Source: a bacterium HR23
GTDB taxonomy: Bacteria > Chloroflexota > Dehalococcoidia > Lucifugimonadales > HRBIN23
DNA: 33,475 nt
Reading direction: 5' to 3'
Assembly (NCBI GenBank): GCA_002923335.1
Contig: BEHZ01000002.1
Span: forward strand, 1-33,475
Part shown: positions 30,125-33,475 of the stretch, piece by piece
How the letters are laid out: every line of letters starts with the position of its first letter
Numbering within the stretch: position 1 is the stretch's first letter
The notes under the pieces: generated by a model
The model's database searches: none
The model's input: only the letters and a program-made list of their open reading frames with translations
Told to the model about the DNA's origin: nothing
Made by a program: the position numbers and the translations under genes

Positions 30125-30715
30125 ATGCGGAAACTCATGACACACTGGAGGCAGGTGAGCCGGAGTCAGCGGGGCATCACCGGACTGGAGACCGCCATTA
30201 TCCTCATCGCCTTCGTGGTGGTCGCCTCGGTCTTTGCCTACACCGTCCTCTCCGCCGGCATCTTCTCCTCCGAGAAGGGCAAGGAGGCGGTGCATTCGGG
30301 TCTCAAGCAGGCACGGGGCTCTATGGAACTGGTGGGGGGTGTCGTTGCCATTGGCAACTCCACATCTAGCCCTTCCTCGGTGGCTAAAGTGCGCCTCACC
30401 GTTTCCAACGCCCTAGGCGGAGAGCCGATAGATTTCACGGCCAAGCCCAACAATGTGGTGGTGGTCGACTACATTGACCGGGACCAGCACCAGGCTAACC
30501 TGAACTGGACCAAGACCGCCCAGGGCAGGGATGATGGCGATGACCTGCTGGAGCAGGGGGAGAAGTTCCAGATAGAGGTAGACCTCTCCACGCTGAGTCC
30601 TGCCTTGGGGGCGAACCGCACCTTCACCATCCAGGTCAAGAGCCCCACCGGGGCCACCCTCGCCATTGAGCGCACCACCCCGGCACGCCTGGACTATGTG
30701 ATGGACCTGAACTAG
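30125..30715 (+). CDS. arlB: Archaellin (archaeal flagellin FlaB/ArlB-like) with a class III signal peptide
   Basis: SD AGGAGG precedes ATG 30125. The N-terminus [63 protein letters not shown] closely follows the pattern of Methanomicrobia-type archaellins (..[26 protein letters not shown].F...K..E.V..G..). The remainder is a beta-rich variable domain. Confidence 0.8.
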   Translation: [196 protein letters not shown]

Positions 30716-30734
30716 GCCACGCCGGCCCGCTTGC

Positions 30735-30766
30735 GGGGGGCCGTCTCTCCCCAGGGACGGCCCCCC
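30735..30766 (+). promoter_or_regulatory. Intercistronic GC stem-loop after the archaellin gene (no U-tract)
   Basis: Perfect 11-bp stem GGGGGGCCGTC-tctccccagg-GACGGCCCCCC, starting 20 nt after the archaellin stop. Confidence 0.55.
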
Positions 30767-30792
30767 GGCTACACCCTCGCAGGAGGCCCGCG

Positions 30793-31674
30793 ATGCCCAA
30801 GTCCCTGGAAGACCTGGAAAACGAGATGCGCATCCTGAAGAACGAGGTTCAGCAGGCTCTCCTGGACATCCGGGAGTTCCTGCTGACCTACGTGGAGAAC
30901 CCCTTCCCCACAGGGCTGGGCCGGGAGCGCCCACCTGGGTCGGGGGTGCTCTCTACCCTCTCCCAGGGCGCCAACGGCGCCTCGGCCGAGGAGAAGGGGA
31001 TGGGGGCCTCCCCCTCCGTGGGCGGGACGGGGGCAGCGCCCCCCCAGGGGATCGGCGGGGCGGGCGGGCCGGTAACCGTCTCCGTAGGGGGGGCGACCGC
31101 CTACGGGGGAGATGCCGCGTCTGAAAGTAAAGGGAGCCAGGGGGGCGCCCCACAATCGGCCGATGCCACCGATAGGGCCCCCCATACGCCCTTAGCGGGT
31201 AAGGGTGCGCCGGCCCCTCCCGGTCAACGAGAGAACCGGCCAGGGGAGAGGCAAGAGACAGGTGCGCAGGGTCCAGAAGACACCAGGGCAGCGCCGGCCC
31301 AAGAGGCCAACGGGGAGCGCCCACCATCTATAGGCAACGACCTGGCCACCGTTGCCCTTCTGGCGCCGTGGGTGGAGGCGGGCCTCAAGAGGGTGGGGAA
31401 GCAGGCGCTGGAGCGGGTTTTCGCCCTCTATGTGGACCTGGGAGGAGTATCCCCGGGGGTGCAGAAGGCCATGTCCCACCTCCTCGCCTTGTCGGGGGAG
31501 GGGGAGGAGACGCCGTCGGCACAGCCCACTCTGCGCCAGTGCCTGCGCCTGCTGGCCGACCTGGACGCCCTGCTCCTGCGGGCACGGCGGGACCTTACCA
31601 GCGCCGTCCTCCTCTCGGCGTTTCTGAGCGATGGTGCCCTCCTGGGCGCCCAGCCAGGGGACGGTGCAGTCTAA
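30793..31674 (+). CDS. Archaellum accessory protein, FlaC/FlaD/E-like fusion (ArlCDE-like)
   Basis: N-terminal coiled coil ending in NPF (LEDLENEMRILKNEVQQALLDIREFLLTYVENPFP), which is FlaC-like. A G/A/P-rich linker of about 150 aa follows. The C-terminal block LATVALLAPWVEAGLKRVGKQALERVFALYVDLGGVSPGVQKAMSHLL resembles the FlaD/E domain. SD AGGAGG precedes ATG 30793. Confidence 0.55.
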   Translation: MPKSLEDLENEMRILKNEVQQALLDIREFLLTYVENPFPTGLGRERPPGSGVLSTLSQGANGASAEEKGMGASPSVGGTGAAPPQGIGGAGGPVTVSVGGATAYGGDAASESKGSQGGAPQSADATDRAPHTPLAGKGAPAPPGQRENRPGERQETGAQGPEDTRAAPAQEANGERPPSIGNDLATVALLAPWVEAGLKRVGKQALERVFALYVDLGGVSPGVQKAMSHLLALSGEGEETPSAQPTLRQCLRLLADLDALLLRARRDLTSAVLLSAFLSDGALLGAQPGDGAV

Positions 31675-31695
31675 CGACACGCTACTCCCGATAAA

Positions 31696-31727
31696 GGCTG
31701 GGGAGCCATCCCCGGCCTTTTTGTTTG
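31696..31727 (+). terminator. Rho-independent terminator after the arlB / arlCDE-like transcription unit
   Basis: Stem GGCTGGGGA-gcca-TCCCCGGCC (one G-U pair) followed by TTTTTGTTTG. Confidence 0.7.
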
Positions 31728-31901
31728 CATGCGTCCTCGTCCGGTTTTTTTCTCCCCTCGCCTTCTGCCATGGAAACACCGGAGAGGGCAGAGGCCTTTT
31801 TACCCTGGAATGGGCAGGTTATTGACGCCCGCCTTCCCTGTAAAGGCACAAGGGGCCCCCGTCCCGCCCCGTGACGCGGGCTGGAGAGGCGAGGCTGAGG
31901 G

Positions 31902-32348
31902 CTATCGGCGCACCAAAGAGGCCACCTCTTGCGCCAGGCGCGCCAGTTGCTGAATGTCCACTTCCTCCAGGTCGGACGCCAGGCCTTGCAACTCCGGGTC
32001 CACCGTCGCCTCCGAGGCGAAGAGGGAGCGCAGGTCGTCGGACAGCCCGTTGCCGTTCTTCTGCGGGGGGTTCTCGGCAGGCGGGGGGGTATCCTGAGCA
32101 GGAGGGGGCTGGGTGGAGGGTTGTTCAGGCGGGAGCGGGGAAGCGTTTGCCTGGGGCTGAGGCGTAGGTGCCAGGTCTCCCAGAGAGGGGGAGGCCCCCA
32201 CATCTTGTAGCCAGGGCATAGGGCCGGTAGAGGGGTTCTCCCCAGGGGCGGTGGGAGATTGTGTCTCCCTCGCCTGGGGTTCCGGTGTCTCCTGGGGCGG
32301 AGATGCCTCCTTACTCTTCCCTGTTGTGCCACGAGAGAACAGGCCCAT
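31902..32348 (-). CDS. Hypothetical P/Q-rich, largely disordered protein with a conserved-looking acidic amphipathic C-terminus, located downstream of arlJ
   Basis: A strong SD GAAGGAGGTG lies 5 nt before ATG 32348. The 148-aa product has an N-terminal low-complexity region (PPQETPEPQARETQSPTAPGENP...) and the C-terminus LSDDLRSLFASEATVDPELQGLASDLEEVDIQQLARLAQEVASLVRR. I recognise no family. Confidence 0.5.
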   Translation of the reverse strand: MGLFSRGTTGKSKEASPPQETPEPQARETQSPTAPGENPSTGPMPWLQDVGASPSLGDLAPTPQPQANASPLPPEQPSTQPPPAQDTPPPAENPPQKNGNGLSDDLRSLFASEATVDPELQGLASDLEEVDIQQLARLAQEVASLVRR

Positions 32349-32408
32349 TGCGCACCTCCTTCTTCTTGTTGGCTTGGGTTGCCCTTTGGGCACCCTTGGC
32401 TGTGCCTC

Positions 32409-33475
32409 CTAAAAGCCGGGAATGGAACCCATAATAGCGTTGGCCAGCAGAGGGCTAACAATGAGGTTGACGCCCGAGGCGGCCAGGGTAATGGACAGGT
32501 GGAAGAAGATACGGTAGGGGTAACCCCCGTCGGCCAGTTGGGGGGCCAGGGCGTTTACTATCGCCAGAGCGACCACCACCGGCCCCATAAGCGTCTCCAG
32601 CAGGTGCATATTGTGGAAACTCAGGCTAAAGAAGGTGGTGAGGTTGATGTTGGACTGGCCGGCCATATCGGGCAGGCCGACCTTCTGTATGAGGTCGCCA
32701 AAGGCGGAAACGACGGCGATGACGAAGGTGAGAAGGAAGGTAACGGTAGCGTGGAGGGCGATGGTCAGCCAGGCAAAGGTGCGGGTAGTGAGTTTGCGTT
32801 TCTCCCGCAGGAAGTTGGTCTTCATGGCCAGCAGGGAGGCCCGTGCCCCCACCTCCTCGGGCTCGCCCCCCATGCGGACACCGTCCAGGAAGATGCGCAC
32901 ACTGCGCCGAATCAGTTCGCTTCCACACTCGGTAACGAGGCGGTCCCAACATAACTCGGGAGTGGCACCGGCTAGGAGGCGGAGGTGCAAGCGTCGGATA
33001 GCCGGGGCCAGGTTGGCCATGGAGCGCAGGTCTATCCGTCCCAGGGCCTCGGAGACGGTGGTGCCGATGGCGGTGGCGGTGGTTCCCACCACCCGCAGGA
33101 AAACCGCCAGGTCTCTGTCCAGTTTGGTAACGCGGGCGTCGTAACGGCTGGCCAGGAAGCCCGCCGGAAAAAAGGCCAGGGCGACCATCACCAGCACCCA
33201 TCCCAGGGGGAGGCCCACCAGACCCAGCACGGTGGCCCCCACAATGGCCCCCGGCACCAGGGTGAAGACCGCCAGACGGGGCACCCGCTGGCTGGGGAGG
33301 CCCTGGGGGCCGGGGATGAAGCGTATCTCCGCAGGGGTGGAGCGGAAGATGACCCACACCCCCAGGCCGCACAGGGCGACCGTCAGCGCCACCAGCCCCA
33401 GCACCACCCCCACCCCCAGGTCATAAATAATGGGGGAAATCACTGCAACGATAATGACCAGCACTGCGGAGACAA
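32409..33475 (-). CDS. arlJ: Archaellum/type IV filament platform protein, FlaJ/ArlJ-like (T2SS-F domain); 5' end lies beyond the window
   Basis: The frame is open to the window edge. The protein is polytopic, with a cytoplasmic T2SSF-like helical domain (DRDLAVFLRVVGTTATAIGTTVSEALGRI..AIRRLHLRLLAGATPELCWDRLVTECGSELIRRSVRIFLDGVRMGGEPEEVGARAS) followed by TM helices. It sits next to archaellin-type genes. Confidence 0.6.
   Translation of the reverse strand, partial: VSAVLVIIVAVISPIIYDLGVGVVLGLVALTVALCGLGVWVIFRSTPAEIRFIPGPQGLPSQRVPRLAVFTLVPGAIVGATVLGLVGLPLGWVLVMVALAFFPAGFLASRYDARVTKLDRDLAVFLRVVGTTATAIGTTVSEALGRIDLRSMANLAPAIRRLHLRLLAGATPELCWDRLVTECGSELIRRSVRIFLDGVRMGGEPEEVGARASLLAMKTNFLREKRKLTTRTFAWLTIALHATVTFLLTFVIAVVSAFGDLIQKVGLPDMAGQSNINLTTFFSLSFHNMHLLETLMGPVVVALAIVNALAPQLADGGYPYRIFFHLSITLAASGVNLIVSPLLANAIMGSIPGF

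Follow-up and report, generated by a model that had tools for sequence, protein, structure and literature searches.

Archaellum gene clusters occur in 243 of 3,780 Chloroflexota genomes, where they and flagella are mutually exclusive (Sivabalasarma et al., Nat Microbiol 2025; PMC12488501). That study attributes them to horizontal transfer from Methanotecta-type euryarchaea to the ancestor of Dehalococcoidia and Anaerolineae, and it reports swimming motility and a filament structure at 2.7 Å for Litorilinea aerophila (Caldilineales). The Chloroflexota clusters have arlCDE homologues, an arlG-arlF gene order, and either bacterial PilD or archaeal PibD peptidases, and CheF is absent in archaellated Chloroflexota (PMC12488501). 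There was an earlier archaellum report for SAR202 ('Ca. Lucifugimonas marina'; PMC10444878), and later preprints extend the theme. Here, we analyze archaellum genes at the right end of a 33,475-nucleotide stretch of DNA from bacterium HR23 (contig BEHZ01000002.1), which we refer to as the window. We estimate a probability of about 90% that the window ends inside a bona fide arl2-type archaellum locus of a Chloroflexota bacterium. An initial reading of the sequence (the original prediction) had proposed an archaeal-type gene set here and had allowed that arl-like clusters might already be known in some Chloroflexota, which the publication cited above bears out.

The window locus resembles the L. 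aerophila system in its archaellin family, in having a putative accessory gene of the arlCDE type and not arlX, in its bacterial-type PilD, in the arlG-arlF order (arlF being a candidate by position) seen in the window's relatives, and, on the statement of PMC12488501, in a host without CheF. It differs from that system in several respects. The metagenome-assembled genomes (MAGs) syntenic with the window are labelled Dehalococcoidia or Chloroflexota at NCBI. Its pilD lies two genes from arlB, whereas PMC12488501 places the peptidase outside the locus. The inversion of its motor operon has produced a convergent layout, and the PilN and PilO-LysM neighbors reported for L. aerophila were not seen at the window locus. 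The euryarchaeal arl2 clusters (Methanotecta and Archaeoglobus), which PMC12488501 proposes as donors, share the core of ArlB, an ArlD/E-like protein, the ArlG-ArlF order, ArlH, ArlI, and ArlJ. However, the window host is bacterial, its peptidase is a bacterial PilD and not an archaeal PibD/FlaK, the CheF adaptor is missing according to PMC12488501, and regulators of bacterial type flank the locus (a LuxR-type protein in the window and a cyclic nucleotide [cNMP]-binding protein in relatives).

Results

ArlB and ArlJ match archaellum families

The arlB product matched the Pfam archaellin family Arch_flagellin over the full model (positions 1 to 162; 104.6 bits against a cutoff of 29.5; E = 9e-30) and TIGR02537, the archaellin/type IV pilin N-terminal domain (30.1 bits against a cutoff of 20; E = 2.4e-7). 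Its top solved structure was PDB 9i5h, the bacterial archaellin of L. aerophila determined by cryo-electron microscopy (E = 1.7e-48). Mature ArlB is about 56% identical to that chain, and the first 21 residues of the core helix are identical at all but one position. The best archaeal archaellins of solved structure were 7txi (E = 5e-21) and 5tfy (E = 4e-15). We found 7555 ArlB homologues at E ≤ 1e-10, and the named ones among the best 120 are all from Chloroflexota or Dehalococcoidia. The closest public ArlB among the matches listed is 85% identical, and L. aerophila ArlB is absent from the best 120 of the 7555.

The original prediction placed the arlB start at position 30125 and a class III signal peptide cleavage site at QRG/ITG, and both placements held. 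A longer reading frame could begin at an ATG at 30083. We prefer the ATG at 30125 because a ribosome-binding site, AAGGAGG (30114-30120), ends four bases before it and because homologues start at the equivalent position, with basic leaders of 11 to 18 amino acids before the cleavage Gly. The resulting leader is 17 amino acids long (28 in L. aerophila), and cleavage is predicted before I18. The sequence after the leader starts ITGLETAII in the window protein and ITALETAII in the 9i5h chain, and the G/IT cleavage motif is common to both proteins and more than 100 homologues. Each of the four residues of the metal site that L. aerophila shares with euryarchaeal archaellins (D121, D127, E131, and E134 as numbered in the 9i5h chain) has an identical counterpart in the window precursor, namely, D137, D139, E143, and E146. 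By contrast, T66 and T145, which are modelled as O-glycosylated in L. aerophila, are not conserved.

The arlJ gene runs convergently toward arlB, and its reading frame continues up to the window edge. The fragment matched the NCBIfam ArlJ/FlaJ model NF004703 from position 165 to 520 of 525 (E = 2.1e-58), so about 150 N-terminal codons would lie beyond the edge. This agrees with the original prediction of an edge-truncated FlaJ/ArlJ-like gene. Every model that the fragment matched was an ArlJ/FlaJ model (E = 2.1e-58, 7.8e-42, and 3.6e-29), and a PDB search with it gave no match. In Pfam and NCBIfam, no Flp, PilA, TadB/C, PilC, or GspF model matched ArlB or ArlJ at E ≤ 1. The original prediction had named best matches to the Tad, Flp, or type IV pilus families as the result that would count against it, and there were none at that threshold. 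Because, in these scans, archaellin and ArlJ/FlaJ models are the ones that ArlB and ArlJ match, we take them to be archaellum genes and not genes of a Tad, Flp, or type IV pilus system.

Relatives carry motor genes upstream of arlJ

We scanned genome collections for loci syntenic with the window. The relatives recovered are MAGs. The closest comparison, L001 (JBKBKV010000001.1), is a contig labelled Dehalococcoidia bacterium that aligns with the window from position 20991 to 33473 in collinear blocks of 74 to 77% nucleotide identity, spanning bacterial and arl genes alike. Five further relatives (L002 to L006), from NCBI, ENA, and JGI samples, have the same gene order. Two assemblies of relatives, GCA_025060295 and GCA_033580395, were not among the entries searched in the genome table of PMC12488501.

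The window ArlJ is 84% identical to the full-length, 508-amino-acid ArlJ of L001. Directly upstream of arlJ in L001 is arlI, whose product scored 660.9 bits on the FlaI equivalog model (cutoff, 550); the TadA model gave this ATPase 155 bits versus 661 for FlaI. The same neighbor precedes arlJ in L002 to L006. L001 ArlH matched FlaH NF004723 (267 bits; cutoff, 194) and the Pfam KaiC ATPase family (E = 1.5e-20), and L001 ArlG matched NF052591 (E = 1.5e-7; 31.6 bits against a cutoff of 110) as well as Arch_flagellin (E = 5e-9). In at least three lineages, the order is cNMP-binding protein, ArlG, ArlF candidate, ArlH, ArlI, ArlJ, and a small open reading frame (ORF). The G-F-H-I-J order in L001 is the arl2 arrangement described for Chloroflexota. 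The original prediction had expected ArlI, ArlH, ArlF, and ArlG upstream of arlJ, and this is where they are found in the syntenic relatives, ArlF being a candidate by position. Exact-sequence searches with the window ArlB, in both start variants, matched no public contig, and gene content past the edge was read from the relatives. By synteny, the same genes would lie upstream of arlJ in the window organism.

In the window's clade, the motor operon is headed by the gene for the cNMP-binding protein (Pfam cNMP_binding, E = 5.5e-15), directly upstream of arlG. Judging from this arrangement, its counterpart in the window organism would lie past the right edge.

An ArlC/D/E-like gene follows arlB

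The gene after arlB encodes a 293-amino-acid protein that begins MPKSLEDLENEMRILKNEVQQALLDIREFLLTYVENPF. Its first 38 residues are conserved and close with NPF, and a variable linker of low complexity separates them from a C-terminal domain, likewise conserved, that spans about 100 residues. AlphaFold2 modelled a helix at residues 2 to 32, a disordered linker at 40 to 180, and a helical bundle at 182 to 280, the bundle with a predicted local distance difference test score above 90. The original prediction was that this protein has a FlaC-like part and a FlaD/E-like part. The FlaD/E part survives in weak form, because Arch_fla_DE was the better of two weak Pfam matches for the C-terminal domain (E = 0.0038, below the family cutoff).

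The FlaC identity of the N terminus was rejected at the profile level. The window protein had no FlaC_arch match, and the family consensus reached FlaC_arch only at E = 1.1, ranked under many generic coiled-coil families. Its resemblance to FlaC is restricted to the helix or coiled coil and the NPF motif.

Run against 1.8 billion representative proteins, a profile search with the 293-amino-acid protein recovered 519 relatives. Arch_fla_DE matched at E ≤ 0.01 in 5 of the 147 family members scanned, with a best value of 3.7e-6. The PDB yielded no meaningful match, either by sequence search or by a Foldseek search with the AlphaFold2 model, and it seems to hold no ArlD/E structure. The gene is directly 3' of arlB in every recovered locus, whichever of the two layouts described below the locus has. 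We accept it as a putative ArlC/D/E-family component, as in the published survey, because of the weak Arch_fla_DE matches, the relatives that reach E ≤ 0.01, and its constant place after arlB. The ArlD/E domain is weakly supported.

Archaellum or adhesive pilus

Several points weigh against the assignment of this locus as an archaellum. Only 3 or 4 of about 9 archaellum genes are inside the window; ArlI, ArlH, ArlG, and ArlF come from its relatives. The window ArlJ scored 197.9 bits against a curated equivalog cutoff of 570, for which its truncation accounts in part, and full-length L001 ArlJ is likewise below that cutoff (343 bits). The C-terminal domain of the ArlC/D/E-like protein is also below its cutoff (17.6 bits versus 21 for Arch_fla_DE; E = 0.0038 to 0.02). 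Finally, the L001 ORF in the ArlF position is a candidate by place and matched no family.

Alternatively, these genes could specify an adhesive pilus of archaeal type, a nonrotating type IV filament (Aap-, UV-, or Epd-like). The published survey traces archaeal pilus loci in a few Chloroflexota to a second transfer, distinct from that of the archaella (PMC12488501), and what the window itself shows is a pilin-like protein and a platform protein, parts of every type IV filament system. However, ArlB matches Arch_flagellin from end to end and is 56% identical to the subunit of a demonstrated archaellum filament. Furthermore, the relatives have the archaellum-specific, KaiC-like ArlH, along with ArlG, an ArlI above the FlaI equivalog cutoff, and the ArlD/E-like protein. 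We therefore regard an adhesive pilus as very improbable and favor an archaellum.

The locus lies in a bacterial genome

The original prediction listed bacterial genes in the same window as the archaellum genes, and profile searches identified rpoB, rpoC, alaS, and the genes for EF-G, a ClpB/ClpC-family ATPase, RuvX, and PilD, as well as TrkH and TrkA. For rpoB and rpoC, the bacterial models scored far above the archaeal ones. The absence of a GC drop was also confirmed. GC content is 0.63 to 0.69 at 30 to 33 kb, versus about 0.65 for the whole window. The tetranucleotide correlation between positions 30126 and 33475 and the rest of the window is 0.967, which matches the highest value among the other segments. 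GC content at third codon positions (GC3) is 0.73 to 0.81 in the archaellum genes and 0.79 to 0.82 in housekeeping genes, and the codon usage of the two groups correlates. The archaellum locus is compositionally ameliorated, as these data support and as had been proposed.

The flanks of the locus are shared by the relatives. Their left flank contains TrkA, TrkH, a luciferase-like gene, the ClpB/ClpC-family ATPase, an Mrr_N protein, and an aldolase. Next come PilD on the minus strand, DUF5658 (present in L005 but not called in L002 to L004), a LuxR-type regulator on the minus strand, and arlB with the arlCDE-like gene on the plus strand. These are followed on the minus strand by the small ORF, arlJ, arlI, arlH, the ArlF candidate, arlG, and the cNMP-binding gene, and then by pyrF on the plus strand.

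This recurrence bears on the possibility, which the original prediction had also raised, that an assembly or binning chimera brought the bacterial and archaeal-type genes together. In favor of a chimera, the window breaks off within the locus, and its relatives are MAGs. However, the junctions of PilD, DUF5658, and the LuxR regulator with arlB, and of pyrF with the motor operon, recur in independent NCBI, ENA, and JGI assemblies. The tetranucleotide correlation is as high as stated above, and the locus has the same GC3 and codon usage as rpoB, rpoC, and the EF-G gene. Because identical bacterial/arl junctions recur in independent assemblies, a chimera is excluded for practical purposes, and we treat the locus as part of a bacterial genome.

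We also compared substitution rates with L001. For all genes tested, the ratio of nonsynonymous to synonymous rates (dN/dS) was 0.09 to 0.33; dS was about 0.8 to 1.6, close to saturation, which makes the ratios approximate. The ratio was 0.12 for arlJ, 0.20 for the small ORF after arlJ, and 0.09 for the LuxR-type regulator. Ratios of this size indicate purifying selection on every gene in the comparison with L001.

Colinear and convergent layouts

The original prediction described a split, convergent layout with an extra ORF on the minus strand. This arrangement is as described, and relatives share it. We compared it with 22 further metagenome loci and with loci reached through ArlB homologues. 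Five distinct loci (L008/L018, L015, L020, L025, and L026/L029) have arlB on the same strand as arlJ and upstream of it. In the window, L001, L002 to L004 with L009 and L010, and L005 with L006, arlB is on the opposite strand and downstream of arlJ. Because the layouts sort into colinear loci on the one hand and the opposite-strand loci of the window's clade on the other, the convergent layout is a clade-specific inversion of the motor module and not a different kind of system.

The gene sets of the two layouts agree. The colinear Chloroflexota loci (for example, L008/L018, L015, L020, and that of SAR202 'Ca. Lucifugimonas marina' [PMC10444878]) have the same genes as the window and its relatives: arlB, the ArlCDE-like gene, an Arch_flagellin-like ArlG, the ArlF candidate, ArlH, ArlI, ArlJ, a protein encoded after arlJ, and DUF5658. 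The colinear loci keep all genes on a single strand, where about 6 kb separate arlB from arlJ downstream, whereas arlB and arlCDE of the window face the end of the motor operon. A GC-rich 12-bp hairpin between the convergent operons is a probable terminator; terminator-like sites in the region were not above shuffle expectation, and the call is weak by itself.

Two side observations concern archaellin gene number and location. L001 has two tandem archaellin genes (12641..13294 and 13298..14419, minus strand) where the window has one. L007 has a lone Chloroflexota-type archaellin gene (10001..10594; 53% identical) whose neighbors are metabolic; the nearest 10 kb contain no arl motor genes. Therefore, split or orphan arlB loci also exist.

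An inversion that parted arlB-arlCDE from the motor operon might have left a decaying or silent relic whose use in motility was lost. The layout does deviate from the colinear order of the other Chloroflexota loci examined, scanning with the sigma-70 consensus gave no promoter-like site in front of arlB, and L. aerophila itself was long described as nonmotile. Against this, all ORFs are intact, with dN/dS of 0.12 to 0.33 in the comparison with L001 at the dS given above. The inverted layout has been kept in at least four diverged lineages, and the metal and cleavage sites of ArlB are conserved. We consider the chance of a relic small, and a maintained archaellum locus remains our reading.

Neighboring genes and candidate regulators

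The features of the locus and their counterparts in relatives are listed in Table 1.

Table 1. Features of the archaellum locus and its surroundings. Locations are window positions unless a relative's locus is named.
Feature	Location	Strand	Basis
arlB, archaellin precursor (196 amino acids)	30125..30715	+	Arch_flagellin, TIGR02537, and PDB 9i5h matches
ArlC/D/E-family-like motor accessory protein (293 amino acids)	30793..31674	+	Weak Arch_fla_DE match, position, AlphaFold2
GC-rich 12-bp hairpin between convergent operons, probable terminator	31693..31720		Terminator consensus scan
Small conserved protein directly after arlJ (148 amino acids)	31902..32348	-	Five orthologues
arlJ, membrane platform protein (C-terminal 354 codons)	32409..33475	-	NCBIfam NF004703
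Conserved upstream region of arlB	29790..30124	+	Nucleotide conservation, AAGGAGG at its end
NarL/LuxR-type response-regulator-like transcription factor, divergent from arlB	28722..29495	-	GerE helix-turn-helix (E = 5e-13)
DUF5658 small membrane protein	28460..28768	+	Pfam DUF5658 (E = 7.2e-9)
PilD, bacterial-type prepilin (class III signal) peptidase	27569..28351	-	Peptidase_A24 (E = 2e-17), A24_N_bact (E = 1.8e-9)
cNMP-binding gene in relatives	L001 5290..5838; L002 16533..17069; L005 16757..17215		Pfam cNMP_binding
Post-arlJ genes in other loci, among others	L008 17085..17927; L012 1666..2466; L020 6328..6999		
DUF5658 homologues	L005 7616..7921; L001 15744..16097; L008 17982..18320; 11 further loci		

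The small protein encoded directly after arlJ is largely disordered. It has an MGLFSR N terminus, and a Pro-rich linker leads to a helical motif of about 45 amino acids that is conserved at the C terminus. Its five orthologues are all unnamed or annotated as hypothetical, and it had no Pfam, NCBIfam, or PDB match. In the colinear loci, arlJ is followed by genes for proteins of 200 to 285 amino acids in which the linker is acidic and the C-terminal motif strongly conserved (...LLDVFRSE...YSLLEE.K.IA.K...). The window protein is shorter, and its motif is divergent. A hidden Markov model of the colinear motif did not match the window ORF. However, profile-profile comparison (hhalign) aligned the two motifs end to end (P = 3.3e-5; probability, 72%). 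Homology between the two types is plausible but tentative, because only the profile-profile comparison joins them.

In 12 distinct colinear loci, the gene next to the post-arlJ gene, immediately beyond it and on the other strand, encodes DUF5658. In the window, L001, and L005, it is on the arlB side of the locus, and in the window it lies between pilD and the gene for the LuxR regulator. Because the linkage outlasts this rearrangement, it suggests that DUF5658 is functionally connected to the archaellum locus. We found no mention of DUF5658 in the literature searched on archaella and no description of the post-arlJ gene in connection with the archaellum.

The position of pilD, two genes from arlB, is kept in L001 and L005, and in L002 to L004 a 160-amino-acid form is in the same place. 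PilD probably cleaves the ArlB leader.

The LuxR-type protein aligns over its full length with the structures of VraR, NarL, and DevR. Its receiver domain is degenerate, with Gly at the position of the Asp in the LMD motif of VraR (the phospho-acceptor in this family) and EE in place of the DD of VraR. Both substitutions are invariant in four orthologues of 76 to 88% identity, and the protein is more conserved than the archaellin. Its position divergent from arlB makes it a candidate regulator of that gene.

The region of about 330 nucleotides upstream of arlB contains blocks conserved with L001 and L005 and, in part, with L002. One of these, GGTTATGGGG, is within an inverted repeat at about 29839-29880, and another, CCGAAAGGAGGTGTCGCCTTG, is at about 30021-30041. 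The region is possibly a long leader or a site of regulator binding. No Rfam family was detected in a scan of the whole window or in a sensitive scan of this region.

Two other observations concern the rest of the window. A second GerE-family gene (14613..15611, minus strand) contains a 200-nucleotide stretch that is 79% identical to its L001 orthologue. The segment 16751..20100, especially 18001..19000, is a compositional outlier, with a GC content of 0.524 at 18 to 19 kb versus about 0.65 and the lowest tetranucleotide correlation in the window (0.879). It includes an ORF for 325 amino acids (18022..18999, plus strand) that has no Pfam family and a weak, partial NucS-like match. From its composition, this segment may be recently acquired DNA.

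Discussion

By analogy with L. aerophila, the genes described here would produce a filament that assembles and rotates. ArlB would be the filament subunit, with its 17-amino-acid class III leader removed by the nearby PilD. The ArlJ platform would insert subunits at the filament base, powered by the ArlI ATPase, which ArlH would regulate, and ArlG and ArlF would form the stator. The ArlC/D/E-like protein might serve as the cytoplasmic ring or switch interface. The genes for ArlG, the ArlF candidate, ArlH, and ArlI and the 5' end of arlJ should lie on the minus strand just past the right edge. We suggest that, in the window's clade, the whole module of arlG, arlF, arlH, arlI, arlJ, and the post-arlJ gene was inverted relative to arlB-arlCDE, leaving two convergent operons with the hairpin between them.

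The bacterial lineage could have added the post-arlJ protein and DUF5658 to adapt an archaeal motor to its new host, for example, as the missing CheF-like adaptor coupling signaling to the motor or as an anchor in the envelope or membrane. We raise this as a tentative suggestion, and we think it somewhat unlikely to be correct; it is prompted by the fact that both genes stay linked to the locus in the colinear and the inverted layouts.

That an entire archaeal motility apparatus passed to bacteria is remarkable, but the 2025 study already described this transfer with experimental validation, and the window locus is, on present evidence, a further example of that published phenomenon and not a discovery. 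What it adds is a clean case of a locus that appears to have become a stable part of the genome in a high-GC Chloroflexota clade and to be inherited vertically there, because its flanks are shared by independent assemblies, its codon usage is host-like, and its genes are under apparent purifying selection. It also adds a documented inversion that divides the locus into two convergent operons, and a set of conserved, uncharacterized neighbors: the post-arlJ protein, DUF5658, the atypical LuxR regulator, and the cNMP-binding protein. The published work raised the question of how a bacterium without CheF controls and anchors its archaellum, and these neighbors are reasonable candidates for the answer.

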